From Thermoanaerobaculia bacterium (lineage in GTDB: Bacteria > Acidobacteriota > Thermoanaerobaculia > Multivoradales > Multivoraceae), in assembly GCA_963664405.1 (NCBI GenBank), contig OY761158.1, positions 3,264,001 through 3,328,000 on the forward strand: 64,000 nt of DNA, read 5' to 3'. The translations under genes and the position numbers were made by a program. Below are positions 44,202 through 63,243 of this stretch, in pieces (within the stretch, counting starts at the first letter, position 1; each line of letters starts with the position of its first letter). The notes under the pieces are model-generated. The model ran no database searches, had not been told where the DNA came from, and was given only the letters and a program-made list of their open reading frames with translations.

Positions 44202-44415
44202 CTCGTTCTCTCCGGAGTCATCTCATCACCGCGAGCTCAGAAAGAGACCGGTGCTCGGGGAATCGTAACGTCATTACACTTTCGGACCAAGTGTCGGAAG
44301 GAGCCTCTCGCCCTTCCCTGGAGCGATGCTCGACCCCCGAGTCAAGCCCTGCAAGGAGGGCATGCTTTCAACTAGACTCGGTCGTCTCTTAGCTCAGAGG
44401 CGCCAGGGAACCCGA

Positions 44416-45084
44416 ATGAGAAACAAGGCAGCGCTTCATATGAAATGGGTGCGAAGGGTCTGTCCCGTCTGGTCGCTCTTTTTTCGAGCCTTCTTTGGAG
44501 CACGAGTGCGGGCTATGAGAAACCTCCCGAGCTCGGGTGCCTTCATCCTGGCGCCCAACCATCAGAGCTTCTTCGACGGACAGCTCTTGGGATGTCCACT
44601 GGATCGTCCCATCTTCTTCATGGTCTCGGCCCCGTATTTCAAAATCCCTGTCATCGGCTCTTTCTTGAATGCTGTCGGTTGTATTCCCATAGGTGGCGGG
44701 GGAGGGCAGGAGGCTTATCGAGCCGGCCTAGAGGTGCTCGAGGAAGGGTATTGCCTCGCGGTCTTTCCCGAGGGGCACAGGAGTAGAGACGGGAGCTTGC
44801 TCAATCTGCAGTTGGGCGCGGCAAGAATGGCCCACCTCACCGGGACACCGATCGTACCGGTGAGTGTCGTAGGCGCGTTCGAGGCTTGGCCCAGGAACCG
44901 CATGCTGCCACGACCCTTCCGACCCATCACCGTCAAGTACCACCGGCCGATTCCTTGTCCGGTGGTCCCCAAGGACCAACTGAGAGTCGAGAGTCGCAGG
45001 ACCACCGAGAAGCTCGGGCGGGTGTTGCGTCGTCGCCTGGCGGCATGGGAGGTTGTTCGGCGCCGCGTCTCCGGCGGAGGATAG
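44416..45084 (+). CDS. Lysophospholipid acyltransferase (PlsC-like)
   Basis: NHQSFFD, FPEGHRS, PIVPV. Confidence 0.88.
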   Translation: MRNKAALHMKWVRRVCPVWSLFFRAFFGARVRAMRNLPSSGAFILAPNHQSFFDGQLLGCPLDRPIFFMVSAPYFKIPVIGSFLNAVGCIPIGGGGGQEAYRAGLEVLEEGYCLAVFPEGHRSRDGSLLNLQLGAARMAHLTGTPIVPVSVVGAFEAWPRNRMLPRPFRPITVKYHRPIPCPVVPKDQLRVESRRTTEKLGRVLRRRLAAWEVVRRRVSGGG

Positions 45085-45088
45085 TCCT

Positions 45089-46015
45089 ATGCCAATCTGC
45101 CCCTACATTTACTGCCGGTCGCCGCTCGACGAGGATGGTTCCGACTGCGCCGTGTGCGGCCACCCGCAGAGCGAAGCTGAGCTCATGAGCCCGTCTTTTC
45201 TGGCGCAGGCCGATGTCGAGGGTCTGCCGGATTCGATTCTGGACATGCACCAGATCCTGCCGTCTCATAAGGGCATGCTCGAGGTGCAGCTACTGGCGAT
45301 GCAGAAGTTCCGCATCGAGCGGGCCCTTCTCCAATCTGCGCCAGATCAGGCGCACTCACTCTTCGGTAATGCGAGGCTCCTCGAGCTGGTGGAACAGCGG
45401 CCGGAGACCTTTTGGATCTCTCAATTCATCGACCCGCGGATGCCGAACGCGCTGTCGATCCTCGAGGACGTGGCGGCGAAGGGCGCCAAAGTGGTGAAAC
45501 TGCTGCCACCCGCCGGCTTCAGGCTCGACGACCCGGCTCATGATCCTTTCCTCTCCCGCATGGAGGAGATGGGACTCGTGGCCATGGTCCATACCGGTTT
45601 CATCACCGCTCGGCACAAGGACGAGGAAGCCAAGGCGGGCGCCTTTATGAGCTCAGTTTACGCCAACCCTCTGACCCTCGACATGCCGGCACGCAAGTTC
45701 CCACGCCTGACGATCATTCTCTGCCACCTCGGCGGCGCGATCTGGCACGAGGAGGGAGCGCAGATGGTGACGCAGCACGACAACGTGTGGGGGGATGTGA
45801 GCGGTTTCGGGCTATTCGCTCTTCAGCGATTGCTACAGACTCGAGCCGCCGTAGACTGGAGCAAGGTGTTCTGGGGTAATGATTCTGTTCCCTTCGCCTA
45901 CCCTCTCAATCTGCGGCTGCTTCTTGCCAGCCTGCGGCAGGCTGGGGCAGAGGCTCTGTTACCCCCGCTGCTCTTCGAGAACGGTCGCGATTTCGCAGCT
46001 GCATTTCTCCCATGA
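45089..46015 (+). CDS. Amidohydrolase_2-family protein with N-terminal Cys4 segment
   Basis: ILDMHQ, VKLLP, MVHTG, FPRLTIILCHLGG, NVWGDVS, FWGND.P; N-terminal CPYIYC..CAVC. Confidence 0.75.
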   Translation: MPICPYIYCRSPLDEDGSDCAVCGHPQSEAELMSPSFLAQADVEGLPDSILDMHQILPSHKGMLEVQLLAMQKFRIERALLQSAPDQAHSLFGNARLLELVEQRPETFWISQFIDPRMPNALSILEDVAAKGAKVVKLLPPAGFRLDDPAHDPFLSRMEEMGLVAMVHTGFITARHKDEEAKAGAFMSSVYANPLTLDMPARKFPRLTIILCHLGGAIWHEEGAQMVTQHDNVWGDVSGFGLFALQRLLQTRAAVDWSKVFWGNDSVPFAYPLNLRLLLASLRQAGAEALLPPLLFENGRDFAAAFLP

Positions 46016-46617
46016 GCTCGCCCGTCAACCGGCTCCCATTTCTCGTCATCAGGAGGCTATTGAAGCTTCTTTTGGCGCTTCCGGCGCGCGCGAAGTGGGG
46101 TCTCGATGTCGATCATGGAGAGCGACTGCCGCGGACTCGGGAACCGCTGATCCTGGCCTGCAATCATGCAGCTCTCTTGGACACGGTCTTTCTGATCTTG
46201 GCGCTGCGACCTCGGTTTACGGTCTGCGGTGCCAAGCCGAGCTACTTCCGGACCACTGCCAGGCGCTTCCTCATGGCGGTCGCTAATATTCTGCGGGTCG
46301 ACGACAAGGAAGTTTTTCTGGCCGATTGCCGTCGCTTGCTCCTCGCCGGAGAGATTGTCCTGATCTACCCGGAGATGGGGCGCAACCCGGAGGGGCTTGG
46401 CGCGTTCCAGACTTGGGCCGCGGAGGTGTCTCTCGACAACGGCGTTCCTCTTTTGCCTTGCTATCTCCACGGCACCACTCGCGGTCATAGCGGCGGCGTC
46501 CGCTTGAGAGTCGGTGACCGGATCCGGCCGCGAGGCACGGCAGGCGAGCTCACGGCTCGACTGCGCGAGGCGATCAGCGCTCTCGCCCAGCCGGCAGGGG
46601 CCGCCGAAACGCCATGA
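46012..46617 (+). CDS. Second PlsC-like acyltransferase
   Basis: NHAALLD, IYPEMGR, PLLPCYL; ATGA overlap with the upstream gene. Confidence 0.8.
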   Translation: MSSPVNRLPFLVIRRLLKLLLALPARAKWGLDVDHGERLPRTREPLILACNHAALLDTVFLILALRPRFTVCGAKPSYFRTTARRFLMAVANILRVDDKEVFLADCRRLLLAGEIVLIYPEMGRNPEGLGAFQTWAAEVSLDNGVPLLPCYLHGTTRGHSGGVRLRVGDRIRPRGTAGELTARLREAISALAQPAGAAETP

Positions 46618-47597
46618 TCCTGGTGACCGGCGCCAATGGCTTTCTCGGACCCCACGTGGTCGAGAGTTTGACCGAAGCGTCTCCGGGGAACGGTGTACGC
46701 GCTGTGCTGCGGAACGCTGACGAGCGATTCAGCTCGCGTTTCCCAGATGTCGAGGTCAAGGAGGGAGATCTTCGCGACGAATCGCTCGTGGCCGATGCCG
46801 TGGCGGGAGTGACGGCCGTCGTTCACTTGGCGTCCAAGAACATCGATCGCGACGGTTCGGGTTTCGACGTCAACGTGGAGAGCACCGAGAAATTGTGCCG
46901 CGCGGCGCAGGCCGCGGGAGTGCGACGCCTCATCTACACCAGTTCGGTCGGTGTCTACGGCCACGGGGCCCATCGCGGTGCCGACGAGACGACTCCAGTG
47001 CGACCCGACACGGCTCTCAGCATCTCGAAGGCGGCAGCAGAGGCCATCGTGCTCGAACATCACCGTACGGGCGCCTTCCGTGCCACGGTCCTGCGCCCCC
47101 GATTCGTCTATGGCGCAGGAGACACCTCCCTACTGCCGCGACTGATCGGAGCCGCCCGCAAGTACCCGTTTTTGATCTCCGGCGGCAGGGCTCGCATCTC
47201 GTTGGTGCTCGCCGACGATCTTGCGCAGGTCATCCTGCGCTTCGCCACCGACGAGACCGAAGTCTCGGGCGCCGGAGACCCGGTACTCCACGTCACCTCG
47301 GGCGAGACGCTTTCCTATCGCGAGCTCGTCTCCACTCTCTGCGCGGCGTTCGGCTATCGGTCGCCACGCTTCAGCCTGCCGATCTGGCTGGTATTGGCGC
47401 CGCTTCTTCTACGCGAGAGACTTCTTGGTCAGGACCCCGAGACTGTACGGGGTATCTCCTCCCTGCGCGTTAGAATGATTGCGCAGGACAACGAGTTCTC
47501 CAATCACAAGCTTCTCCAGCGCTTTCCGGATCTGAGCTTCACCTCGTTTGCGGAAGGCTTCGAGAGCTCTCTCGACTATTACCAGCGCTTCGCGTGA
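46614..47597 (+). CDS. NAD-dependent epimerase/dehydratase (extended SDR); catalytic Tyr apparently replaced (LSISK)
   Basis: ILVTGANGFLG, VVHLAS, YTSSVGVYG, LSISKAAAE, LRPRFVYG. Confidence 0.85.
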   Translation: MILVTGANGFLGPHVVESLTEASPGNGVRAVLRNADERFSSRFPDVEVKEGDLRDESLVADAVAGVTAVVHLASKNIDRDGSGFDVNVESTEKLCRAAQAAGVRRLIYTSSVGVYGHGAHRGADETTPVRPDTALSISKAAAEAIVLEHHRTGAFRATVLRPRFVYGAGDTSLLPRLIGAARKYPFLISGGRARISLVLADDLAQVILRFATDETEVSGAGDPVLHVTSGETLSYRELVSTLCAAFGYRSPRFSLPIWLVLAPLLLRERLLGQDPETVRGISSLRVRMIAQDNEFSNHKLLQRFPDLSFTSFAEGFESSLDYYQRFA

Positions 47598-47601
47598 GCG
47601 G

Positions 47602-48252
47602 ATGAAGGTTTCGATCAAGAGCCTTCTCAAGGGGGCTCGGGAAGCACGTGGTCACGTTGCGCTCATCGACGTGTTCACGTCGACCACCCTGATCGCGACC
47701 TTGCTGGACCGGGGTGCGACAGAGGTCGTCCCGGTGCGCTCCGTGCGTGAGGCCATGGCGATCCGGGCCGGCCGTCCCGACACGATTCTGATGGGAGAGA
47801 GATGGGGCAAGAAGATCCCGAGCTTCGATCACAACACTTCCTGCGTACGCGCCAGTACGCTCGACGTCGCCGATCGGCAGGTGGTGGTGTCGACCACGAA
47901 TGGAACCCTGGGAATCCTCAGTGTGGAGAAGGCCGACCGCCTCTTTCTTGGCTGTTTCCGCAACGCAGCGGCGCTGGCCCAGCGATTGGCGGAAGCTGAT
48001 GAAGTGACCCTGGTGCCGATAGGGCTTGCCCACGGGAGGATCAGGGCTATCGAAGACGAGCTCTGTGCCGAGGCGGTGAGACGCTACCTTCTGGGTGAGG
48101 ATGTCGGGTTCGCGGCTCTTGAGCAACGCATTCGTCGAGACCTCTCGAGCCGAGTGAGAAACGTGAGCCGCCGTTCCGATGTCGATTACTGCCTCGAGCT
48201 CAACGCTGTCGATATCGTGCCTGAGCTCCGCGGCAAGATCATCAGAGCCTAG
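47602..48252 (+). CDS. 2-phosphosulfolactate phosphatase (ComB)-family acid phosphatase
   Basis: LIDVF, GER.G, STTNGT, GCFRNA, EDELCA, DVDYC. Confidence 0.8.
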   Translation: MKVSIKSLLKGAREARGHVALIDVFTSTTLIATLLDRGATEVVPVRSVREAMAIRAGRPDTILMGERWGKKIPSFDHNTSCVRASTLDVADRQVVVSTTNGTLGILSVEKADRLFLGCFRNAAALAQRLAEADEVTLVPIGLAHGRIRAIEDELCAEAVRRYLLGEDVGFAALEQRIRRDLSSRVRNVSRRSDVDYCLELNAVDIVPELRGKIIRA

Positions 48253-49806
48253 GAGTCTGCGCGGCAGGAGTGCGGGTACGGTGAAGCTTCGATCGCGCTG
48301 CAGAATGGACGCCGCATTGGGTTTCGGATGGCGGAGAGTGCGTTGAGCAAGCCTGACGAGGCGTCAGGAAGCGCGATGCGGGTCGTATAGTGAGCTCTAA
48401 CTCGGTGGCATGGCCCGGAGCGGCTCATGAAGCCGCTTGGAGGACGTGGAAGCGCTTCAAGTTGACGGCCAGACACACCAGATCCCACTCGTGGCCGACG
48501 TTGTCTTGGCCCCGGAGGCTGAATCGTCGGAAGCCCAAGACCTCTTTGATCCAACCGATCACCGGTTCCACGACCGCCTTGCGCCGTCGGTAGCGTTGCT
48601 TGCCGGCGTCGCTGGCGAGTTTGTTCTGCATGCGGCGAGACGCTGCGAGCCTCTTGGTCACCTCACGCTTCTTTCCCTCTCGACCCAAGGAGATGTGAGC
48701 TTCAATGCCTCGTTTCTCGAGCTCGAGAAACGTCGCCTCGCTGCGATACCCCGCATCCGCCAAGACCTGCTCGGGATCCTCCCCCATCGCCGCCTTCGCC
48801 CGCGACAGCAACGGCATCATCTCGCCCACGTCCGCGGCGTTGTTCGTCAGGCTCGTCGAGACGATCATCTGCGACTCTTCCTCCACCGCCAACTGGCCGT
48901 TGTAGCACTGATCGTAGCCATGGACCGTTTTCATGATCCGACTCTGCGGATCGGTGAAGTTGTCCTGGGCCCGGTCCTCCGGTACACCAAAATCGCGCGC
49001 GAAGGGCCGCCCGCGACGAGGCGGGTCGTCGTCGTCAACCTCCTTACGGCCGCGCTCTCGGTCCTTTTCGGCCTGGCGCGCCTCGAGCCTCTCCTTCGCC
49101 TGCTGGATCTTCGCCAAGCGCTGCTCGCGCCGCTGCAGCTCGGCCGGCAGCTCATCGCCGCGCACCTGCGCACCATGCTCCACATCCTCTGCCGTATCCA
49201 CCGCCTCGGCCTGCGACAGGAGCTCGGCGATCTCCTCTTGCAGACGCTTCTCCTCCTCCAGCATCCGAGCGTAGCTCATCGACTTGCGCTTGCTCGCGTT
49301 GGCCTTGACCTTCGTACCGTCCACCACCAACGTCCCCATACGCAGCACCCCGGCCTCACGAGCGATCTGCACCACCTGCACGAACAGCGCCCGGAATGCC
49401 GCTAAATGAAGCTGACGAAACTCACATATCGTGCGATGCGCCGGGGAGTTGCCCGCCGCCAGATAACGATACGCCACGTCCTCCTCGAGCTTGCGCGCGA
49501 TGCCGCGCGACGAATACGTCCCCGTCCCATACGCATACAACATCACCTTCACCATCATCCGAGGATCGAACGGCTGATTCCGACGACCATCCCCCTCGTA
49601 ACGAGCGTAAAACGACGACAGATCCAGCGCCTCCACCGTCTCGGAGATGAAGTACACCAAGTGGCCCTCCGGCAACCAGTCACGAGGGCTCGGGGCTAGC
49701 AGATACAGCTGATCCGGAGCATACGGACGAAACGACGTTGGCATGCCACAACTCTACTCCGTCTTCGATCTCTTCACTAAACACTCCGTTTCTGCCGCGC
49801 AGACTC
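48253..49806 (-). mobile_element. IS1182-family insertion sequence with CTAG target duplication
   Basis: Inverted ends GAGTCTGCGCGGCAG / CTGCCGCGCAGACTC; CTAG at 48249-52 and 49807-10. Confidence 0.92.
48425..49744 (-). CDS. IS1182-family DDE transposase
   Basis: DWLPEGHL, DPRMM, SSRGI, VDGTKVKANAS, TDPQSRIM, LADAGY, VEPVIGWIK, RFSLRG. Confidence 0.93.
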   Translation of the reverse strand: MPTSFRPYAPDQLYLLAPSPRDWLPEGHLVYFISETVEALDLSSFYARYEGDGRRNQPFDPRMMVKVMLYAYGTGTYSSRGIARKLEEDVAYRYLAAGNSPAHRTICEFRQLHLAAFRALFVQVVQIAREAGVLRMGTLVVDGTKVKANASKRKSMSYARMLEEEKRLQEEIAELLSQAEAVDTAEDVEHGAQVRGDELPAELQRREQRLAKIQQAKERLEARQAEKDRERGRKEVDDDDPPRRGRPFARDFGVPEDRAQDNFTDPQSRIMKTVHGYDQCYNGQLAVEEESQMIVSTSLTNNAADVGEMMPLLSRAKAAMGEDPEQVLADAGYRSEATFLELEKRGIEAHISLGREGKKREVTKRLAASRRMQNKLASDAGKQRYRRRKAVVEPVIGWIKEVLGFRRFSLRGQDNVGHEWDLVCLAVNLKRFHVLQAAS

Positions 49807-49829
49807 CTAGCCAGAAGAAATGATGAGTA

Positions 49830-50744
49830 TCATTTCCTCTGGCTAGTTGCCTTTGGCGCCGAGGACGGCGCACTCAGTTCTTGCTTCTTATTCGCTTCGG
49901 GCAGCGTCTGCGCCTCGGGCGCCGCTTGTGGGGGTGTCTTTTCTTCGCTGCTCCAGCCCAGGCCGGCTCCGTCGGGAAGGAAAAAGTCGCGCACGTCATG
50001 CTCAGAGATGTGGTCGCTCACCAGGTTGAGGAGCCCCTCGAAAGTGAGATGCACTCCGCGTTTGGCAACCATCCTCTGACCCAATCCGATGAAGCCGCCC
50101 GGCTCGGTGTGGGTGAAGTACTCGACCGCGGTGCAATCTTCGCTCAGGGGAATCATCAGCCAGGAGCCCCGGCTCGACTTGAGCGCCGGCATCTTCTTCG
50201 CCACGTCCGCGATCGGAGGGTTCTCCGTGTCGGCACTGTCGATCTCGTCAGTCCAGGTCAGCTCCCACAGGTTGCCGTCGGATTGTCGATATAGATCCGC
50301 GCTCATCCGGATCCGGCTCAACCACCAGCGACCGATGCCCCATCGTTGGAAGGTCTGGAAGAGAAGGCGCTCACTACCACGGGGGTCCCCACCAATGACT
50401 TCGGAGTGCTTGACCGGTATGTAGTCGCCCTCCAGATCGTGATGATCCTCGTCATTGACCGCTTTCCAGAGCTTCTCTATAGGTAGCTCGACGATGAGGA
50501 CACCAAACCCCTTCAGTCCGGAGCGGCTGACAAAAACCTCGCCGACGCGATCGACGGCTGACTGATAAAGCTCGGTGGGTACAGCGTTTTCGAAGCTCTT
50601 CGTACGTGAAGCCCGCTCCAGCTGGAGGTCGTCGAGTGTTTCGAGAAGCTGATCCGGAGAGGGGCAGGCTGCCATTGTCGGGCTCACCATTGAGCTGAGC
50701 GCTACGAGAACGGCGCCGAGGGTACCGATGCCTCTTATTGACAT
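49830..50744 (-). CDS. Secreted START/SRPBCC-like (putative lipid-binding) protein
   Basis: Signal peptide; RGSWLMIP and VEYFTHTEPGG resemble the START C-terminal motif. Confidence 0.55.
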   Translation of the reverse strand: MSIRGIGTLGAVLVALSSMVSPTMAACPSPDQLLETLDDLQLERASRTKSFENAVPTELYQSAVDRVGEVFVSRSGLKGFGVLIVELPIEKLWKAVNDEDHHDLEGDYIPVKHSEVIGGDPRGSERLLFQTFQRWGIGRWWLSRIRMSADLYRQSDGNLWELTWTDEIDSADTENPPIADVAKKMPALKSSRGSWLMIPLSEDCTAVEYFTHTEPGGFIGLGQRMVAKRGVHLTFEGLLNLVSDHISEHDVRDFFLPDGAGLGWSSEEKTPPQAAPEAQTLPEANKKQELSAPSSAPKATSQRK

Positions 50745-50760
50745 CACCTCCACGCCACCT

Positions 50761-52158
50761 TCATTCAGAGGCGACCGCCGGAACCGATCTCTCGGTGGTC
50801 AAGAACGAAAGCGCATCTGACGAAGACACCGGCCGCCCAGGATCGAGGGCCGCATCGTTGACAAGGAAGAATCCGGACGAGGAGAGGGAGTCCAGGCCCC
50901 CATGGGTACCCTCGAGGAGGCCGCCCTTGATCCTGGCGACGAGGTAAGCGGCTTTTCGTCCCCAGGCGTAGCCCGGTTCGATCGAGAACAGAACACTGGC
51001 GGCGTGCTTGACATAGGTTCCGGTGAGACTGTCGATGATGCGCTTGGGTGCGTTGGGATACGGGGCCTCGATGCTGTGGACGAGCCAGTCCTCGCTCTTG
51101 GCGAATCCGTCGTCGTCCAGCGCTCCAGTGGCCCGTAACCGTGACACTGCGGTTGATAGCGCCAGCGGGTCGCCGCCGGTCGGCTCGTAACTGTATCGGG
51201 GGCCGTCAGGAGTTTCTCGCCACCCAAGCCGTGCCGAGGCCTCTCCGGCCAACACGGTCACCTCCTGGCTGCCCGACACAAAGGCCGCCAGCTCCACATT
51301 CGGATGAGCGGCGATGCTCTCTGCGGCATCACGAGCTCGACGATCTTGCACATAGATTGCGCCGAAGTTGACGAGCCCGAAGGTCGGGGCGACCGCATCA
51401 TTCGGGCCCTCGAGACGGGAACGTAGGTTGAAGCCCGACCGGCGGAGCTGGCGCTTCAAGCCCTTGGCCCGCCGCACCTTCTCGTCGGTGTTGCCATGGT
51501 CGGACAACAGAACCAGGCGCAGGCATCGGCTCGTCTGCTGTCGGTACTGCTCCTGCAGGGCCTCGAGTCGCGGGTCGAGCTCGAGTAGAAAGCGGAGAGT
51601 GCTCTGGTAACCGTGGAGGTGAGTCAGACTGTCAGTGCGCGCGAGATAGACGACAAGGAAGTCCTGGTCGCTTGCCAGAACCGTTTCCTCCATCTGGGCT
51701 AGCTCGGCAAAGGCTAAACGGCGCGGGGTCAAATATCCCATGGCGTGCTTCCAGGAGCCTTGCCGCTCTTTCTCCACGACATCCCTCCAGGCGTAGGCGC
51801 GCTTCTTGGCCCCGAAGGGCAACTTGCCCACCATCCTGTTGCGATCGCGGTCGAAGTGCGGGATCTCGTAGCCGGCGACGGGACCGACATCCAGGGGCTG
51901 GAGAATGGCGGAGAAGCTCACATTGGTCATCGATGGAAAAGTGGCGACAAGTGGCCTCTGCGTCTGCCAGCCGTCGAAAGCGCCTTGCTCACGGGCCAGT
52001 CCAATAACGGAGTAGGGCACCCCATCCAGAGCCAGAACGACTGTCGTCTGATCCTCACTCGAGGAGTCGCAAGCCACCGCGGCATGGCCGGGCTGCGTCA
52101 CGCTCCAGATCACCACGATTCCGCAGGCTACGGAGCTCGGTGAGAGGCCGAGCCTCAC
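50761..52158 (-). CDS. Alkaline-phosphatase-superfamily (NPP/phosphodiesterase-like) enzyme, probably exported
   Basis: LALDGVPY, TFPSMT, DSLTH..G, LSDHG, THG; GTG start overlaps the PKS stop (GTGA). Confidence 0.78.
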   Translation of the reverse strand: MRLGLSPSSVACGIVVIWSVTQPGHAAVACDSSSEDQTTVVLALDGVPYSVIGLAREQGAFDGWQTQRPLVATFPSMTNVSFSAILQPLDVGPVAGYEIPHFDRDRNRMVGKLPFGAKKRAYAWRDVVEKERQGSWKHAMGYLTPRRLAFAELAQMEETVLASDQDFLVVYLARTDSLTHLHGYQSTLRFLLELDPRLEALQEQYRQQTSRCLRLVLLSDHGNTDEKVRRAKGLKRQLRRSGFNLRSRLEGPNDAVAPTFGLVNFGAIYVQDRRARDAAESIAAHPNVELAAFVSGSQEVTVLAGEASARLGWRETPDGPRYSYEPTGGDPLALSTAVSRLRATGALDDDGFAKSEDWLVHSIEAPYPNAPKRIIDSLTGTYVKHAASVLFSIEPGYAWGRKAAYLVARIKGGLLEGTHGGLDSLSSSGFFLVNDAALDPGRPVSSSDALSFLTTERSVPAVASE

Positions 52159-55100
52159 ACCTCTCCCCACCGTGCACGCTGGTACTCCGGTGTATCCGCG
52201 GCGGCACCGTACAGCTCGATTCCTCCCAGCTTCAGATCGCCGCTGCGTAACTCGACATGGGAACCGCTGAGGCGCATCGTCGAGGTATCGATACTCCGGA
52301 TCGTCGGCGACCAAAGTGTCACGGGGTCGTCTGCGCCGATCACCTCAGCGAGGCGGATGTGGACCGCCAGCAGAATGAAGTGAGAATCGAACGATTCGTG
52401 CTCCAGTGCGTGAGCACGGGCGGTGAGGAATTGTCGAGTCCACTCGACCAGCTGGGTCGCTGAAACATGATCCACATCACTATCGCGAAGGGCGTGCTCC
52501 GGAGTCGGTAGGAGGGCCGTTGCAGCGACGCCTTCGTCCGACACCACCGGCTCCGAGATCAATACGTTCTCGCTCCGCTGCTTGTGAACCAAGCGGCGGC
52601 TTGCCGCTCGCTGCGGCCCCGGCATCCGCTCGTGGCCGCCGACGAGATCGACAGGGCGCATAAGGCCTTCGAAGGTTGCACACCGCTGACTCCCGCCGAT
52701 GGAGCCGCGCACACGCCACCGCTCGGATTCGCGGGTCAAGCCCTCTGAAGTGATCTTGAGGGGCGTATCCAGATCTCCCCAGCTCTCGAAACGGATTCTG
52801 AGCTCCTCCAGTTGCAGCCGGCGGCGTAGCGACTCGCCGCCGAGAGCCATAGCGAGCCACTCGCTGAGCTGCTGAACGGCCTCGACAAAGAGCAAGCCTG
52901 GTACGTGATCGTAGGGATGATCGAAATAGAAAGGGTGCGTCTGGTCGACAACGATTCGCGCTTCGAGCTTTCCGTCGTTGTTGACGATCTGTTCGAGCAC
53001 CCGATTGCGCGGGTCCCTACGTAATTGCAGCACTCCTGTGGGCGCTACCAGGATTTCGATGGGCGCCCCTTCCTGCCCGGGGCCTACAGTTGACTCGTTG
53101 GCGGCCAGACCCACCGCAGTCGCGCCTTCTGCACTCAGATGCGGTCTTAGCGTCTCGACGATGTCGCCAACCGTGCTCACCTCCGCCCAATCCAGCTCCT
53201 GCTCCTCCAGCGCCGGAACGTCCTCCCCCAGAGCGAGGACCAGCTCGACCAACCCGATCGAAGAGAGGCCGAGACCGCGAACTTGGGTCTCGAGCGAGAG
53301 CTCCGAGGCCAGGTGGCCGGTGATCGCTGCGAGTCGCGCCACTACGATGGCGTGCGCCGGATCTGAGGGCGTAGGGAGTGCTTCTGGGGCCGTCGCCGCG
53401 GATATGGGCTCGACGAGGGCTCGCGGCTTGGTGGCCTCACCTTTGAGCCAGTACGGCCGGCGCTGGAACGGGTACCTTGGCAGGGTGCTGACACGACGCG
53501 TAGGCGCGCCGAAGAACTGACTCCAATCGGGTGTGGCACCAAGCTCGAAAAGACCTCCGAGCGTGCTGACCATTCGTCTCGAATCGGACGTCCCTGGTCG
53601 CAGACTGGCAAATCCCTTGGTGTCGGGCCCCAGGCACCCTCGGGCCAGAGAGAGCAGGACCGGCGTGCTGCCCACCTCGAGCAGGGCGTCGTAACCCTCC
53701 TCGGCCAGGGCAGCCATACATTCGGCAAAGCGCACTGTAGAGCGGGCTTGGGTGAGCCAGTACGAGGGAGACGAGAGCTCCTCCGTCGCTCGCTTACCTG
53801 TGACGTTGGAGAAGAAAGGCACCGACGGGCTAGTGCAGGCGAGGTCTCGAATGCCACGCTCGAGCTTCGGTAGCACAGGGTCGAGAAGCGCTGAGTGGAA
53901 GGCTCGCCTCACCGGCAGCCGCTTACCGGAAACACCTATCTCTCGCAGGCGCTCGTCCAGCCGATCGAGAGATGTGCTGCGGCCGGTGAACACCGTCTGC
54001 AGCGGCGAATTGACGGCTGCCACCTCCACCTCGGGGGCCACCTCTTCGAGCAGAGCGAGAGCCCTCTCTTCGCTCATCTCGACCGCCAACATCGACCCCT
54101 CGGCGGAGCTTTCCTGCATCACTCGTCCGCGCAGCGCTACGAGTCTGAGCGCGGCGTCCAGGTCGAGGGCGCCGGCGACGCAGGCAGCAACGATCTCGCC
54201 GACGCTGTGACCAAGAACCGCCGCCGGGGTGATACCCCACGCCTTCCACAGCTGAGCCAGCCCATACTCGAGTGCGAAGATCGCCGGTTGGGAGTAAACG
54301 GTCTCGTCGAGAGTCGCCGAATCCGTGCCGAACATGACCTCCAACAGAGGGCGATCGAGCTCGCGGTCGAGAACCTCGGCGCAGCGTTGTACGCTTTGAC
54401 GAAAGAGCGGCTCACGGTCGAATAGCTCCGACCCCATGCCGGTGTATTGAGAGCCCTGACCGGTGAAGAGGAAGGCAATCCTGAGCCCACTTCGGGATGC
54501 CGGCCGTGCCTCAGCGTTCCACTCCGAGAGCGCCCGCTGCACTTCTTCGGTCGACTCCGCAACGATCGCGGCGCGGTAAGGAAGGGCTTCCCGTTGCGTG
54601 GCGGCAGCGTTGCAGAGGGCGCCTAGCTCGCTTTCGTCCGTTTGTTCCAAGAGGCTGGCGTATCTCGTGCACAGTTGCCGCAATGCGGTCGGGGTCTCGG
54701 CTGCAAGCGCCAGCAGCGGCTGAAGCGCAGTGGCCGGTGGGCCGGTGGCCGGTTCCGCGGCGACCGATTCGAGGACGATGTGGGCGTTGGTTCCGCCGAT
54801 TCCGAACGAGCTCACGCCCGCCACCTGTGATTCGCCGTTGTTCGTTTCCCAGGGCTCAAAGCGGGTCTGTACCGCCAGGTTGAGTCGCTCGAAGGGGATG
54901 TAGGGGTTGGCGTTGTGGAAGCCGAGGCTGGGAACGAAGGAGCGGTGGTGCATCATCAAACAGCACTTGACCACGCCGGTGACTCCCGCGGCCGACTCGA
55001 GATGGCCGACGTTGGTCTTCGAAGAACCGACACGGCAGGGCGCCTCGGGCGGGCGGCCTCGGCCCACCGTCCGACCCAACGCCTTCGCTTCGATCGGGTC

Positions 55101-56036
55101 ACCGAGGAGAGTCCCGGTGCCGTGTGCCTCGACGTAGTCAACGCGGCTAGGTTCGACGCCGGCCCGCTGGTAGGCCTGGCCGAGAACCATTTCCTGTGCC
55201 CGGCCGTTCGGTGCCATCAATCCGTTACTGGGTCCGTCCTGGTTGACGGCGCTTCCGCGAATCACCGCGTAGATCCGGTCGCCATCGCACTGGGCCGCCG
55301 CCAGCGGGCGTAGGACCAGCATCGCTGCGCCCTCGCCGCGCACATAGCCGTTGGCGCTGGCGTCAAAAGTCTTGCAGCGACCGTCTGGCGACAAGACCCC
55401 TGCCTCGGCGAGGCTCGCCGAGCTCAGGCTGTCGAGAAGCAGGCTCACGCCGCCGGCGAGCGCGAGATCGGTATCGCCGCGCGCGAGCCCCTCGCATGCG
55501 AGGTGGATGGCTACCAGCGATGACGAGCAGGCGGTGTCCACCGCAAGGCTCGGACCGTGGACACCGAGAAAATAGGACAAGCGATTGGCCGCGATGCTGC
55601 ACAGAGCTCCGGTGAGCTGTACTGCGTCCCTCTGGCCGGGTGACGCCGCGCTCTGCAAGGCGTAGCCGCTGCCCGAGATGCCGATGTAGACCCCCGCGGC
55701 GCTCCGCCGGAGGGCGGAAGGCACGATGCCGCTGTCCTCCAGAGCGTGCCATGCGAGCTCCAGAAGGAGTCGCTGTTGGGGGTCCATGTAATCTGCCTCG
55801 CGGGGTGAGATGCGAAAGAACGGTGCGTCGAACTCTGCGATGTCGTTCAACAGCGCCGCGTGCCCCAGATCCCTCACTCGTTCCCGGTCCCAGTCACCGA
55901 GGGCCGACACGTCGGTGACACCATGTCGTCCTTCCCTCAACAGATCCCAGAAGGCGTCGAGGTCAGGGGCGCCCGGCAATCGGCACGCCATACCGACGAT
56001 GGCTACACTCTCGTCAGGCTGTGCTTTCGAGCTCAT
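52155..56036 (-). CDS. Monomodular type I PKS: KS-AT-ACP fused to two AfsA-like hotdog domains
   Basis: KS DTACSSS, HGTGT, GHLE; AT GHSVG and AFHS; ACP LGLSS; AfsA-like HPFYFDHPYDHVPGLLFVEAVQQ and LVHKQRSENVLIS..DHVSATQLVEWTRQ; no KR, DH, ER or TE motifs seen. Confidence 0.88.
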   Translation of the reverse strand: MSSKAQPDESVAIVGMACRLPGAPDLDAFWDLLREGRHGVTDVSALGDWDRERVRDLGHAALLNDIAEFDAPFFRISPREADYMDPQQRLLLELAWHALEDSGIVPSALRRSAAGVYIGISGSGYALQSAASPGQRDAVQLTGALCSIAANRLSYFLGVHGPSLAVDTACSSSLVAIHLACEGLARGDTDLALAGGVSLLLDSLSSASLAEAGVLSPDGRCKTFDASANGYVRGEGAAMLVLRPLAAAQCDGDRIYAVIRGSAVNQDGPSNGLMAPNGRAQEMVLGQAYQRAGVEPSRVDYVEAHGTGTLLGDPIEAKALGRTVGRGRPPEAPCRVGSSKTNVGHLESAAGVTGVVKCCLMMHHRSFVPSLGFHNANPYIPFERLNLAVQTRFEPWETNNGESQVAGVSSFGIGGTNAHIVLESVAAEPATGPPATALQPLLALAAETPTALRQLCTRYASLLEQTDESELGALCNAAATQREALPYRAAIVAESTEEVQRALSEWNAEARPASRSGLRIAFLFTGQGSQYTGMGSELFDREPLFRQSVQRCAEVLDRELDRPLLEVMFGTDSATLDETVYSQPAIFALEYGLAQLWKAWGITPAAVLGHSVGEIVAACVAGALDLDAALRLVALRGRVMQESSAEGSMLAVEMSEERALALLEEVAPEVEVAAVNSPLQTVFTGRSTSLDRLDERLREIGVSGKRLPVRRAFHSALLDPVLPKLERGIRDLACTSPSVPFFSNVTGKRATEELSSPSYWLTQARSTVRFAECMAALAEEGYDALLEVGSTPVLLSLARGCLGPDTKGFASLRPGTSDSRRMVSTLGGLFELGATPDWSQFFGAPTRRVSTLPRYPFQRRPYWLKGEATKPRALVEPISAATAPEALPTPSDPAHAIVVARLAAITGHLASELSLETQVRGLGLSSIGLVELVLALGEDVPALEEQELDWAEVSTVGDIVETLRPHLSAEGATAVGLAANESTVGPGQEGAPIEILVAPTGVLQLRRDPRNRVLEQIVNNDGKLEARIVVDQTHPFYFDHPYDHVPGLLFVEAVQQLSEWLAMALGGESLRRRLQLEELRIRFESWGDLDTPLKITSEGLTRESERWRVRGSIGGSQRCATFEGLMRPVDLVGGHERMPGPQRAASRRLVHKQRSENVLISEPVVSDEGVAATALLPTPEHALRDSDVDHVSATQLVEWTRQFLTARAHALEHESFDSHFILLAVHIRLAEVIGADDPVTLWSPTIRSIDTSTMRLSGSHVELRSGDLKLGGIELYGAAADTPEYQRARWGEV

Positions 56037-56274
56037 CCTTGAGGAATCGGGCCAGCTCGTCGATGCTGGGATAGTCGAAGAACATCGTGGGCTCCAGCTC
56101 GACCTCCAGCCAGTCCTCGAGATCCGCTGTTATGGCGATCGCAGCGAGCGAGTCCAAGCCGTAGTCGGCGAGAGGGCGATCGGCATCCAACGGCGTTTCG
56201 ACGCCGAGCCTCTCGCGTAGTCTTGCGAGCAGCCAGGCCCGGATACTGTCCGTGGTTGGCGCCGGCGAGCTCAC
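56014..56274 (-). CDS. Acyl carrier protein
   Basis: YGLDSLAAI, LEDWL, FDYPSIDELA. Confidence 0.92.
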   Translation of the reverse strand: MSSPAPTTDSIRAWLLARLRERLGVETPLDADRPLADYGLDSLAAIAITADLEDWLEVELEPTMFFDYPSIDELARFLKDELESTA

Positions 56275-58133
56275 GTGACCTCGCCGAGCTCTCCGGATTG
56301 AAAACGTTGCCTGGCAATGTAGCGTTGAGGCTTGCCGCTCGGGGTCTTCGTCAAGGCGCCGGCGTCCAGAGCCACCAGAGTGTGGACGTTCAGGCCATGC
56401 TGGGCGAGGACGGCATGGCGGATCTGGGAGCTCACGCTCGGCCGCTCTTCCGGAGGCACATCGCGCATCTCGACACCGATGACCAGCCGCTCCCCGTCAT
56501 CTGCGTCCACCGAGAAGGCGACGATTCGGTCCGCCCGCAGGGGGGCGTGGGTACTTGCGACTGTCTGCTCGATGTCTTGAGGGTGATGGTTGGCACCGCT
56601 GAAGACCATTAGGTCCTTGTAGCGGCCGGTGACGAAGACCTCCTGGTCGTAGATGACTCCGGTATCGCCGGTGCGCAGAAAAAACGCTCCGGGGATCTGC
56701 CCAAGCCGCGCCCCGAAGGTTGCTGCCGAGCTCTCTGCGTGCCCGAAGTACCCCTCTGCTACATGAGAGCTGGCTACCCAGATCTCGCCTACGCCCCCCT
56801 CCGGGCAGGTTTCGAGCGATTCGGGATCCACGATCCGGAGAATCGCATCACCGACTGGAGAGCCGCAGCTAACCAAGGGGACCGCCCCTGCGGATCCCTC
56901 GTTGACCGCCACCGCCTTGCCGTGGCGCAGCCCCTCGCGGTCGAAACACCGAGAGCGAAGGCCTCGGCGCCCTGTGACGATGAGCGTCGACTCGGCCAGC
57001 CCGTAGCAGGGGAAGATTGCCTCGGGGTTCAGACCACAAGGTTCGAAGGCATCGATAAATCGGCGCACTGTGTCGGCTCGGACTGGCTCTCCGCCCACGA
57101 CAACGATTCGCAGGCTGCTGAGATCGAGATTGCGGCGTGAGTCTTCCGTGGTTTTGGCGACGCAGAGCTCGAGGGCGAAGTTAGGGACCGCGGTGAGCGT
57201 TGCCTGGTTTTCAGAAATGGCCCTGAGCCATGTCAATGGGCGCTTGAGAAAGGTCATCGGCGAGAGTTGGACCTGGGACGAGCCGCTCAGGATCTGGAAA
57301 AGCATGCAACCGATCAAGCCCATGTCGTGCGTTGCGGGCAGCCAACTGACGCAGATCTCGCGCTGCGGTCGGAGCTCGCCCAGGTCGTTTATTGCGGTAG
57401 CGTTGCTAGTCAAATGCTTCTGGGCAACGGCAACGCCCTTGGGGTCCGATGTCGAGCCGGATGTGTATTGGAGCAGGCTCAAGGCATCGGGCTCCCAGAC
57501 TGGTTGCTGCCAGGCTTCGGCCAGGCTGTCGTCGATCTCGTCGACTGCGATCCAACGTGCTACCGCCAGCGCTGGAACTTGCTCAGTCATATCGGTGGCA
57601 TGGTCGGCAAGCTCGGAGGTGGTCAGCAGTGTCGACGCGTCGGCATCTTTGGCGATGAGGGCAAAGCGTTGCAGGGCGCCGAGCACACGCTTCTGGGCCC
57701 GTCGTGCCGATGTGCGACGGCCGAAGCGCATCCCGGCAGGCGGCTGGACAGGTACTGCCACCATGGCAGCGTACTGGCAACCCATGAAGGCGGCGAGGAA
57801 CTCTATGCCCGGCTTGAACAGTAGGACGATACGGGCACCGGGCGACTCCTCCCGCTGTAGACGGGCCGCGATGGCGCGGGCGCGCTGATCCAGATCGCTG
57901 AACGTGTAGCTGTCACGGACCTCGAGACTGTCGGTGAGAAAGGTCACCGCAACTCGATCCCCGCACTCCGCGGCATACCGCCGAAGAGCGAACGGCAGCA
58001 GATCCTGACCGTCTTCGCGGTGTGGTAGCGGTTGGCTCTTAGGCTTAGACTCCGTCAGCCCTTCGCGTCCCCTCCCGGCGGCGCCGGGTCCGTGGCTAGT
58101 GTTTCGAGGCGTGGCGAATCCTAGCAGGATCAA
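56271..58133 (-). CDS. Fatty acyl-AMP ligase (FAAL); start uncertain
   Basis: LQYTSGSTSDPKGV, SWLPATHDMGLIG, PCYGLAE, LRTGD, TGRYKDL, KTPSGK.QR. Confidence 0.92.
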   Translation of the reverse strand: MILLGFATPRNTSHGPGAAGRGREGLTESKPKSQPLPHREDGQDLLPFALRRYAAECGDRVAVTFLTDSLEVRDSYTFSDLDQRARAIAARLQREESPGARIVLLFKPGIEFLAAFMGCQYAAMVAVPVQPPAGMRFGRRTSARRAQKRVLGALQRFALIAKDADASTLLTTSELADHATDMTEQVPALAVARWIAVDEIDDSLAEAWQQPVWEPDALSLLQYTSGSTSDPKGVAVAQKHLTSNATAINDLGELRPQREICVSWLPATHDMGLIGCMLFQILSGSSQVQLSPMTFLKRPLTWLRAISENQATLTAVPNFALELCVAKTTEDSRRNLDLSSLRIVVVGGEPVRADTVRRFIDAFEPCGLNPEAIFPCYGLAESTLIVTGRRGLRSRCFDREGLRHGKAVAVNEGSAGAVPLVSCGSPVGDAILRIVDPESLETCPEGGVGEIWVASSHVAEGYFGHAESSAATFGARLGQIPGAFFLRTGDTGVIYDQEVFVTGRYKDLMVFSGANHHPQDIEQTVASTHAPLRADRIVAFSVDADDGERLVIGVEMRDVPPEERPSVSSQIRHAVLAQHGLNVHTLVALDAGALTKTPSGKPQRYIARQRFQSGELGEVT

Positions 58134-58154
58134 AACCGGTTGCCCAGCGTCGGC

Positions 58155-58319
58155 CTAGACCAGCGTTTCCAAAGTTCGTGTACATAGCTCGAGGTCATTC
58201 TGTTCGCTGGCCAGGCGCGCCGACGCAGGCATATTGGGCAATATGTCGAGGAGGCGAAACGCCGTCAGCGGACAGAAGGGGCCGAGATATGTGCGCGAAC
58301 TTTGGAAACGCTGGTCTAG
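58155..58319 (+). mobile_element. Palindromic MITE-like element, type A, complete, with CTAG duplication
   Basis: CTAG-ACCAGCGTTTCCAAAGTTCG ... CGAACTTTGGAAACGCTGGT-CTAG. Confidence 0.92.
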
Positions 58320-58574
58320 GGCCTCTGAGCACAAGAACCGCCAGTGTCGTTGCAGGTCGTTTTGCCATCTCTGCCCTCTCCTCTTCGGGCTATAGGCTGC
58401 CGATGCCACTACACTTCAACATTCGGAGCTTCTCTCTATCGACTGCGGTTTCGCACTTTACCGTTGTCAGATATTGGGGTGGGGTTCAGTTGTTATTAGC
58501 TATATGACAATATATAGAGTCGGCTGTTTTTCTCACGCTGCGGGAAGCAAGGTTGCGAAAGTGAAGGAGAGCTC

Positions 58575-62563: not shown

Positions 62564-62775
62564 AGAGCTGCGCGAGGACGGTTGAGGGGCACCGTGCGTA
62601 AAGGAGATTATGCCGTGAATGTAATCACAATTATGTCGGGAAGAGTGCCAGAGTGTGACCAGGAGTGTAGAGATAGGCCAATTTAATGCACGATCTATCG
62701 GTACTCTCTTGGTGGACACCCCTTGACAGAGGATCCATGAAAGGCATAATTAGAATTACATTCCATGAGGAGACC

Positions 62776-63243
62776 ATGCCGCGACGCAGACCCGACCCGA
62801 AAGCCGAGGCCCTCCGTCAACGAGGGTGCCTTCATCCCCAGCCGGAGAAGGTCTCGGACGATTTGTTCACCTCGAGCGAGTTCTTCGACCCTCGAGACCT
62901 CGTGCAGGTCAAGTACGAGATGCTGCGCCGTGTCCGGGTGGACAGACACACGGTGAGCCGGAGCGCGGCAAGCTTCGGGTTGTCGCGCCCATCCTTCTAC
63001 CACGCCCAGGTGGTTTACGAAGAAGGCGGCCTACCCGCGTTGCTGCCAAGAAAGCCGGGGCCGCGCCGCGCCCACAAGCTATCCGAGGAGGTCGTCGAGG
63101 CCCTGCACGACAGGCTGGAGGGGGAGCCGGACGCAGATGCAACCGCCCTGGTCGAGTGGGTGCAGAAGCGCTTTGGCATCTCGATCCATCCGCGCAGCAT
63201 TGAGCGAGCCCTGGCTCGCCAGGAAAAAAAACGCCGGCCATGA
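62776..63243 (+). CDS. Helix-turn-helix protein of the recombinase element
   Basis: GAGGAG RBS; FFDPRDLVQVKYEMLR, FGLSRPSFY, PGPRRAHKL, HPRSIERAL. Confidence 0.8.
   Translation: MPRRRPDPKAEALRQRGCLHPQPEKVSDDLFTSSEFFDPRDLVQVKYEMLRRVRVDRHTVSRSAASFGLSRPSFYHAQVVYEEGGLPALLPRKPGPRRAHKLSEEVVEALHDRLEGEPDADATALVEWVQKRFGISIHPRSIERALARQEKKRRP

Follow-up and report, generated by a model that had tools for sequence, protein, structure and literature searches.

This study concerns a gene cluster in a 64-kb stretch of DNA (the window, G000:C1:3264001-3328000) from a Thermoanaerobaculia bacterium whose genome is a single contig of 6.78 Mb with about 62% GC. On the minus strand, positions 49830-58133 of the window carry five open reading frames (ORFs). 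They encode a fatty acyl-AMP ligase (FAAL), a stand-alone acyl carrier protein (ACP), a polyketide synthase (PKS) composed of ketosynthase (KS), acyltransferase (AT), ACP and two terminal AfsA repeats, an enzyme of the NPP/alkaline phosphatase (AlkP) superfamily, and a START-fold protein. The locus encodes an AfsA/PBS-terminated PKS, a kind already known. It belongs to a larger conserved cluster, which suggests that the product is a lipid and not a hormone. The evidence tilts toward a FAAL-primed PKS with a single extension, whose chain would be released by the PBS didomain onto dihydroxyacetone phosphate (DHAP) and tailored to a lipid-like product handled by an exported protein pair.

In the FadD32-Pks13 system of Mycobacterium, a long chain activated by a FAAL is passed to an ACP, and a single KS-AT-ACP set carries out one Claisen condensation, whose 3-oxo product leaves by transfer to a hydroxyl of a polyol and not by hydrolysis. 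Unlike the window PKS, Pks13 has a thioesterase (TE) at its end, uses trehalose as acceptor and has an AT that loads a long carboxyacyl chain. FadD32 and Pks13 (NF040607, NF038339) were among the best named matches of the locus; the Pks13 model scored 696 against an equivalog cut-off of 2100.

The stand-alone AfsA, ScbA and BarX enzymes of Streptomyces share with the window PKS the PF03756 family, two hotdog repeats, and the motifs E-x-x-R-Q and DHxxDH.PG. The chemistry of AfsA is established (PMC11877004), and the reaction of the window domain is presumed to be the same, joining beta-ketoacyl-ACP with DHAP. The window domain differs in being fused to a PKS, so that it is not fed by fatty acid synthase. 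Its repeats also stand in reverse order, no ArpA-type receptor is encoded nearby, and the host is diderm.

In the trans-AT PKS for gladiostatin/gladiofungin of Burkholderia gladioli (GdsF/GlaE), the final ACP of a type I PKS is likewise followed by an AfsA-type didomain, which takes the place of a TE. The last module likewise leaves a 3-keto thioester, and candidate phosphatase genes are described in the cluster (PMC7756379, PMC7756420). The ACP-PBS didomain of GdsF, in which PBS is the name given by Nakou et al., is reported to carry out DHAP-dependent release of 3-keto thioesters in vitro (PMC7756379). As described in these sources, GdsF/GlaE is multimodular and takes a glutarimide starter, whereas one cis-AT module primed by FAAL and ACP is present here; the systems were compared by description and not by sequence. 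The AGPAT-like acyltransferases, short-chain dehydrogenase/reductase (SDR), ComB-like phosphatase, amidohydrolase and exported NPP/START pair further distinguish the locus from GdsF/GlaE.

In the salinipostin (spt) cluster of Salinispora, an AfsA homologue likewise occurs with an AMP-ligase (PF00501), an ACP (PF00550) and an NAD-binding reductase, and a phosphorylated gamma-butyrolactone (GBL) is kept as a branch-point intermediate toward a lipid-like phosphoester (bioRxiv 10.1101/2020.10.11.335315; PMC8209734). As far as these sources describe the cluster, it differs in that Spt9 is unfused, the host is an actinomycete, and no START, NPP or AGPAT genes are named; the locus studied here lacks the Spt6 diphosphate kinase and Spt7.

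Gene order and domains of the PKS operon

The five genes are translationally coupled, and every junction of the PKS operon is coupled. Stop and start codons share GTGA at the FAAL/ACP junction, and the ACP and PKS genes overlap by 23 nt. The PKS and AlkP genes overlap as GTGA, with the AlkP start at the GTG at 52158, preceded by GGGGAGAGG, and not at 52314. The AlkP and START genes are separated by a 16-nt gap, with GGAGG ahead of the START gene ATG at 50744. The first-pass annotation of the window had described five tightly coupled minus-strand genes, and all of these ORFs, with the overlaps at their junctions, were present; its AlkP and START coordinates were corrected to those given below. 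The features of the operon are as follows.

56271-58133, minus strand: FAAL (PF00501 208.9 bits, PF23024 34.7 bits)
56014-56274, minus strand: stand-alone ACP, 86 aa (PF00550 65.2 bits; GLDS42L motif)
54747-56012, minus strand: PKS ketosynthase, residues about 9-430 (PF00109 280 bits, PF02801 144 bits)
53649-54473, minus strand: PKS acyltransferase, residues 522-796 (PF00698 213.5 bits)
53151-53345, minus strand: PKS internal ACP, residues 898-962 (PP-binding 18.3 bits, under the cut-off of 20.8)
52722-53021, minus strand: AfsA/PBS repeat 1, FabZ-like 'H' repeat, DHPYDH1044VPG...E1052AVQ (PF03756 61 bits; best stretch residues 1006-1104)
52305-52592, minus strand: AfsA/PBS repeat 2, 'R' repeat, DHVSA...E1198WTR1201Q (PF03756 50.2 bits)
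50761-52158, minus strand: predicted exported NPP/AlkP-superfamily enzyme, 465 aa (PF01663 41.7 bits, cut-off 23, with only part of the profile covered)
49830-50744, minus strand: predicted exported START/SRPBCC-fold protein, 304 aa (AF2 model and Foldseek)

The TTG start of the FAAL gene is uncertain; it is the sole ATG, GTG or TTG codon upstream of the AMP-binding domain. The ORF at 56033-56317 was rejected as a gene, as it overlaps the ACP gene in the wrong frame. Promoter and terminator scans gave results not above shuffle expectation.

The top NCBIfam models of the FAAL were fatty-acid--AMP ligases with 392, 368 and 357 bits, all under their cut-offs. The closest solved chains in the PDB include FadD32, FadD23, FadD28 and the Fatty Acyl-Adenylate Ligase 3pbk, and the motifs YTSGSTSDPKG, YGLAE, TGD and GRYKD were present.

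The PKS (P0001; 52155-56036, minus strand, 1293 aa) has Pfam KS, AT and AfsA matches above the cut-offs, and its closest solved chain is the KS-AT of CurL (748 bits). The KS triad C170 (DTAC170SSS), H305 (H305GTGT) and H345 (NVGH345) is complete. The AT carries the motifs GHS611VG, R636 and RAFHS (711-715), which we take to indicate malonyl specificity. The motif of the internal ACP, GLSS926I, is retained in the relatives P0007-P0009 and P0013. C170, H305, H345, S611, R636 and S926 lie on one chain, as in a type I cis-AT module, with the ACP sub-threshold in Pfam. No ketoreductase (KR), dehydratase (DH), enoylreductase (ER) or TE domain was found by Pfam in the PKS. A crude motif scan of the PKS gave no KR or DH motif, and the only TE-type GxSxG motifs were that of the AT itself and one within the KS. 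The two scans agree with the intact triad, malonyl-type AT motifs and missing reductive and TE domains of the first-pass annotation. With no KR, DH, ER or TE present, the ACP-bound chain should, after one extension, be a 3-oxoacyl thioester.

AfsA/PBS didomain and its relatives

The whole PKS scored 102.3 bits with PF03756 (cut-off 24) in two stretches and 14.5 bits with FabA (cut-off 23). The C-terminal 313 aa alone scored 107.9 bits with AfsA and 17.1 bits with FabA, again below the FabA cut-off of 23. The Pfam check had been proposed beforehand, together with the claim that the C-terminus is AfsA-like. As the AfsA scores are well above the cut-off and the FabA scores below it, the C-terminus is AfsA-like rather than a hotdog of the FabA/DH/PT or TE type. 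In a genome-wide six-frame scan, the only AfsA matches were these two repeats (61 and 50.2 bits). A PDB sequence search with the PBS region gave no match at E up to 1.

Relatives of the PKS were collected by two protein searches. A word-indexed search limited to proteins of 711-2263 aa gave four close relatives, P0007-P0010. P0007 and P0160 may share a contig, since the longest contig given for each is 20,559 bp. An exhaustive phmmer search gave 761 proteins at E up to 0.001, and at least 38 relatives at least 1000 aa long were present among the 152 matches listed.

The residues reported as essential in ScbA are E78, R81, E240 and R243, that is, one E-x-x-R per repeat (PMC13454427). Judged by motif position and by P0176, a protein annotated as ScbA/BarX and not ScbA itself, their counterparts here are E1052, Q1055, E1198 and R1201, so that one Arg is lost. 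The Gln in the E-x-x-R motif of repeat 1 is common to P0001 and P0007-P0009 and is not found in P0013. Across 128 type-A domains (H-motif repeat first), the columns of E1198, R1201 and Q1202 were conserved in 97%, 82% and 99%; those of D1039, H1040, D1043 and H1044 are 100% conserved by construction of the alignment. P0007 also has Ile at the position equivalent to residue 1113 of P0001, as seen by inspection of its sequence.

The order of the two repeats was investigated by motif position. In P0001, the DHxxDH.PG repeat comes first and the E-x-x-R-Q repeat second. In classical ScbA-like proteins, including P0176 (annotated ScbA/BarX, on a Streptomyces plasmid), the repeat with E-x-x-R-Q only comes first and that with DHxxDH.PG second. 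Counts were made over P0001, the 152 listed matches of the exhaustive search and P0176. Of the 47 proteins with 450 aa or more, 46, P0001 among them, had the H-motif repeat first near the C-terminus, and the remaining one (P0010) was unclassifiable. Among proteins shorter than 450 aa, the H-motif repeat was first in 82 and second in 22.

Profiles of the single repeats were compared by hhalign, with A1 and A2 built from the first 60 of the 128 type-A sequences and B1 and B2 from 15 classical ones. The scores were 214.6 for A1-B2 and 125.9 for A2-B1, against 42.6 for A1-B1 and 82.5 for A2-B2. The A1-B2 match follows in part from the grouping itself, which used the location of the DHxxDH motif; the preference of A2 for B1 is the independent evidence. 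An HMM of the second type-A repeat, run with hmmsearch, matched best on the N-terminal repeat in all 15 full-length classical proteins. By motif and profile, the AfsA repeats are opposite in order to those of classical ScbA/AfsA, and the change looks like a circular swap of the pseudo-dimer. Swapped repeats were also seen in many stand-alone 'AfsA-related' domains (compared: P0076, P0089, P0091, P0123, P0127 and P0176).

Pfam domain scans covered 12 of the listed relatives. The arrangement KS-AT-AfsA was found in P0013, and the fragment P0012 is AT-AfsA. KS without AT, followed by AfsA, was found in P0015, P0019, P0023, P0024 and P0026, proteins of about 1100-1200 aa. Four of the 12 were FAAL-primed on a single chain: P0014 and P0018 are FAAL-ACP-KS-AT-(ACP)-AfsA, and P0066 and P0131 are FAAL-ACP-KS-AT-DH-ACP-TE-AfsA. 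The recurrence of the FAAL-to-PBS link within single polypeptides supports the preferred reading.

Within the phylum, a PBS search of 300 other genomes and G000 gave weak matches only, in 4 other genomes. A contig search with the single PBS sequence gave only one weak match of 35 residues, in an actinobacterial metagenome-assembled genome. A clear PBS orthologue was found in one genome among 40 relatives, G012, which belongs to the same family and another genus.

Part of the novelty claimed in the first-pass annotation stood. In the literature consulted, no characterised FAAL-primed PKS-AfsA system was found; Figure 4G and the SI of PMC7756420, which catalogue orphan AfsA-terminated lines and lie outside the text consulted, may include the architecture. 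The architecture is not unique, in view of the four single-chain relatives and of the orphan assembly lines with terminal AfsA domains already reported (PMC7756420).

A stand-alone 'AfsA-related hotdog' gene was also noted on the Aliiroseovarius crassostreae plasmid NZ_CP080787 (L021, 5605-7805), followed by genes for an NAD(P)/FAD oxidoreductase and an MFS transporter. This proteobacterial neighbourhood also encodes an MMPL transporter and an outer membrane lipoprotein-sorting protein, and looks like a lipid-export context.

Exported proteins

The model of the NPP-like protein had a pLDDT of 75. Its best folds in Foldseek were ENPP6 (E 3e-8, TM 0.46/0.53), PhnA, ENPP1/5/7, autotaxin and the Xanthomonas (Xac) NPP. 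Going by this model, most of the nearest folds are phosphodiesterases, several of them acting on lipids. The N-terminus was hydrophobic and signal-like on inspection in 11 of 11 aligned sequences, the query included. Invariant in these sequences were D45 (ALDG), F74-T78 (FPSMT), D176, H180, D220-N223 (SDHGN) and T418-G420 (THG), which we take, from NPP motifs, to be metal and nucleophile sites.

The START-like protein gave no Pfam or NCBIfam match. Its AF2 model had a pLDDT of 83, and the best Foldseek match was 3qsz, a STAR-related lipid transfer protein (E 7e-10, TMt 0.70), followed by CERT START domains. An Atlas search leaned to START and Polyketide_cyc families and is taken as a lead. In the alignment, a signal peptide is followed by an invariant C27-P28, and C204 is invariant too. 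The alignment includes a 547-aa ORF of the locus L007 whose C-terminal part is spurious and overlaps a ComB-like gene on the opposite strand.

The genome is diderm, with an Omp85 match of 157 bits. Given this and the signal peptides, the NPP-like and START-like proteins are most likely periplasmic or secreted. Any phosphate removal by the NPP-like protein would thus occur outside the cytoplasm, which is not in keeping with a cytoplasmic dephosphorylation. The first-pass annotation had assigned the AlkP enzyme as the phosphatase of the pathway; with a signal peptide in all 11 homologues, this assignment is not favoured, and a cytoplasmic ComB-like phosphatase encoded next to the operon is the better candidate.

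The distribution of the pair was investigated in 48 metagenome loci (L022-L069) that the START alignment had retrieved. In 13 of them the START-like gene had an AlkP-like neighbour. In 7 others, with 1.5 kb or more of sequence to either side, there was none, and the remaining 28 were too short to judge. None of the 48 loci had a PBS domain, and one had KS-AT. Among the genomes, the START-like genes of G028 and G132 adjoin unrelated genes. The order in metagenomes was usually START then NPP, the reverse of that in the window (e.g., L024:10049-12012, L058:2938-5073 and L023:5072-7041). GNAT genes lay beside the pair in L024 and L058, with a class I/II aminotransferase gene also in L058, and SDR genes in L024/L025.

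Convergent operon and conservation of the cluster

A second operon of five genes faces the PKS operon on the plus strand.

44326-45084, plus strand: AGPAT/PlsC-type acyltransferase 1, closest to acyl-ACP--phospholipid O-acyltransferase (PF01553 90.5 bits; NF006386 89 bits, below cut-off; 51% identity in G012)
45053-46015, plus strand: Amidohydrolase_2-family protein (PF04909 74.2 bits; 65% in G012)
46012-46617, plus strand: AGPAT/PlsC-type acyltransferase 2 (PF01553 45.1 bits; 60% in G012)
46614-47597, plus strand: extended SDR of the epimerase/3beta-HSD family (PF01370 126 bits; 56% in G012, 59% over a fragment in L022)
47548-48252, plus strand: ComB-like protein of the 2-phosphosulfolactate phosphatase family (PF04029 139.8 bits; NF002057 121.8 bits, below cut-off; 72% in L022, 59% in G012)

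The best NCBIfam models of the SDR were HpnA (112.9 bits) and OleD, a 2-alkyl-3-oxoalkanoate reductase (98 bits), both below their cut-offs. The true start of the ComB-like gene is probably near 47599, and no signal peptide was noted in its product. Two candidates were rejected. The minus-strand ORF at 47539-48126 is unrelated to L007:13840-14535 (minus strand), and the real gene at its position is the plus-strand ComB-like gene. In L042, the epimerase encoded next to START shares only 33-35% identity with the window SDR and was not accepted as its orthologue.

In G012, a PBS region of 38% identity is followed by AlkP-like (48%) and START-like (46%) genes, and all five genes of the convergent operon are kept beside PKS, AlkP and START, with 51-65% identity. 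On the metagenome contig L022, AlkP (58%) and START (56%) are followed by convergent ComB-like (72%) and SDR (59%) genes. In P0010, the PBS domain reads into AlkP-like sequence with 56% identity. The PKS operon had been put forward in the first-pass annotation as self-contained, which does not agree with the conservation of the operon at 44326-48252 alongside it in G012 and in part in L022. The five PKS-operon genes appear, at somewhat better than even confidence, to form the core of a larger cluster that spans about 13.8 kb (44326-58133) and consists of two convergent operons. The cluster apparently builds an exported lipid and not a classical bacterial hormone.

Proposed pathway and alternative explanations

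A pathway was modelled on what was observed directly: domain identities, catalytic motifs, the coupling of translation, the conserved neighbourhood and, by inspection, export signals. In its early steps, which rest on domain logic and on the biochemistry of relatives, the FAAL would adenylate a fatty acid and load it onto the stand-alone ACP. The single non-reducing cis-AT module (KS-AT-ACP) would then add one malonyl unit to give a 3-oxoacyl-S-ACP. The PBS didomain would move the 3-oxoacyl chain to a hydroxyl of DHAP, and ring closure of the ester by aldol condensation could give a long-chain 2-acyl-3-(phosphooxymethyl)butenolide. The chain length and the DHAP acceptor are predicted. The first-pass annotation had proposed the same chemistry from FAAL through the beta-ketoacyl chain to AfsA and DHAP; its release step has a precedent in GdsF in vitro (PMC7756379), and its phosphatase step and its self-containment were not supported.

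The later steps are suggested by family names and by the conserved neighbourhood. The phosphorylated butenolide or the open ester would be tailored in the cytoplasm by the convergent operon to a lipid-like product. The OleD/HpnA-like SDR would carry out a reduction, the ComB-like phosphatase would take off the phosphate, and the two AGPAT-like acyltransferases would O-acylate the product, with some further tailoring step by the amidohydrolase_2 enzyme. In the periplasm, the NPP-type phosphoesterase and the START-fold lipid binder may act on or carry a lipid or phosphoester form.

Several observations weigh against this pathway. The PKS scored 82 bits with the ScbA/BarX equivalog NF041195, below the cut-off of 200, and in that alignment residues 1005-1111 (repeat 1) fell on profile positions 178-275, the second repeat. 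In repeat 1, Gln1055 stands at the place of an essential Arg of ScbA (R81/R243; PMC13454427). Residue 1113 is Ile in P0001 against Gln in 89% of the 128 relatives, and together Gln1055 and Ile1113 may mark a different pocket. P0041 is a KS-AT-DH-ER-KR-ACP-AfsA protein; as it pairs a fully reducing module with this type of AfsA domain, a butenolide is no necessary outcome of the domain. The contig of G012 ends inside the PKS, so that the synteny there covers the genes from the PKS onward. No transporter for a phosphorylated intermediate was found in the cluster. The pair of START and NPP genes occurs in 13 of the 48 metagenome loci with PBS in none, and thus has a role independent of this PKS. 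Finally, the PBS of GdsF/GlaE was set beside the window domain by description, not sequence, and that it shares the H-first order we infer.

A saturated acyl chain could not form a butenolide, so the AfsA domain of P0041, P0066 and P0131 may be a plain acyl-ACP:DHAP acyltransferase. A bolder form of the preferred reading is that the didomain is, in this clade, an acyl-ACP:DHAP O-acyltransferase that founds a hitherto unknown route to multiply acylated Gram-negative envelope lipids derived from DHAP or a butenolide. Their phosphorylated head would be reduced, dephosphorylated and, by the AGPAT-like enzymes, O-acylated, and the product would then be handled by the periplasmic START and NPP pair. 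We consider this unlikely. The same form would have the exported pair serve alongside other lipid-building genes across many uncultured bacteria, which is likewise doubtful.

Against these readings stands the model of the first-pass annotation, in which the five genes suffice, the AlkP enzyme removes the phosphate and the product is a free 2-acyl-3-hydroxymethylbutenolide. The translational coupling of the five genes and the conserved PBS-AlkP-START adjacency agree with it, and alkaline phosphatases are reported to dephosphorylate butenolide and GBL phosphates in vitro (PMC7756379, PMC11877004). It is nevertheless improbable, given the AlkP signal peptide in 11 of 11 homologues, nearest folds that are phosphodiesterases (ENPP6, ENPP7 and autotaxin), the conservation of a cytoplasmic ComB-like phosphatase and four more enzymes alongside, and the occurrence of the AlkP/START pair without any PBS.

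The didomain might also work without DHAP, using another hydroxyl acceptor (glycerol-3-phosphate, another sugar phosphate or a lipid head group), or be a hydrolase- or dehydratase-type hotdog. The repeat order, swapped relative to the characterised stand-alone enzymes, the change of Arg to Gln in repeat 1 and Ile1113 in place of the consensus Gln speak for this, as do the fully reducing module of P0041 and the presence of both TE and AfsA in P0066 and P0131. With AfsA at 102-108 bits against 14-17 for FabA, the H-motif and the E-x-x-R-Q motif both kept, and the H-first order common to 46 of the 47 proteins with 450 aa or more (query counted), such an activity is equally improbable; the sole PKS-fused domain reported as assayed uses DHAP (PMC7756379).

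The NPP/START pair might be unrelated to the PKS product and form an independent periplasmic module, e.g., for phospholipid or phosphoester scavenging. Its presence in 13 of 48 metagenome loci, none with PBS, and the START-like genes beside unrelated genes in G028 and G132 are in keeping with this. The PKS stop and AlkP start nevertheless overlap as GTGA, and the adjacency is kept in G012 (where PBS is only 38% identical), P0010 and L022. The GNAT and SDR genes of other loci, and the aminotransferase gene of L058, are also a lipid-like context. The chance that the pair is unrelated is therefore slim.

Least probable is a classical diffusible gamma-butyrolactone or butenolide hormone with the SDR as reductase, the ComB-like protein as phosphatase and a receptor encoded elsewhere, since the FAAL priming implies a long chain, the two AGPAT-like acyltransferases and exported START/NPP proteins point to a lipid, the AfsA domain is below the ScbA/BarX cut-off and, as the first-pass annotation had noted of TetR/ArpA-type receptors, the 15 TetR_N matches of the genome all fall outside 3264001-3328000 (the nearest among the matches listed being at about 2.14 Mb and 4.70 Mb, more than 1 Mb off), even though 15 TetR_N genes are present and AfsA, reductase and phosphatase make up the canonical A-factor route (PMC11877004).

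Mobile elements in the region

58154-58320, no strand assigned: miniature inverted-repeat transposable element (MITE)-like element, 167 bp, with 38-nt terminal inverted repeats (inverted repeat 92% complementary)
48244-49805, minus strand: insertion sequence (IS) element with a DDE transposase ORF at 48425-49744 (PF01609, PF13751 and PF05598 matches)

The MITE-like element has about 40 near-full-length copies in the genome with 96-100% identity; contig depth is very high at this element and contigs break there. The copy at 58154-58320 stops 20 nt short of the FAAL start codon, on its upstream side, and could affect the operon promoter. The IS element splits the two operons, is polymorphic among close strains and has no part in the pathway. 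In runs X7 and X12, the contig records span 47500-48243, skip the IS element and pick up again at about 49806-49818, which indicates that the insertion is recent. Several runs with small shares are labelled as seawater or marine sediment, from which no habitat is deduced. The plus-strand ORF at 62686-63243 has HTH_32/HTH_29/HTH_28 domains, typical of transposase N-termini, and together with the IS and MITE-like elements suggests a region rich in mobile elements.

Significance

AfsA chemistry has so far come from the hormones of actinomycetes and from one pair of Burkholderia antifungals. In this locus, an AfsA release domain ends the smallest possible fatty-acid-primed PKS, amid lipid-type tailoring enzymes and exported lipid-handling proteins. 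Two general leads reach beyond this genome: the swap of the two hotdog repeats where the domain is fused to a PKS, and the recurrent secreted START and NPP pair. The locus is a good target for genome mining, and is worthwhile for expression and lipidomics. If the product is confirmed, the locus would offer a compact, engineerable off-loading module, and the butenolide/DHAP chemistry would extend from signalling to the lipid and envelope biology of Gram-negative bacteria.

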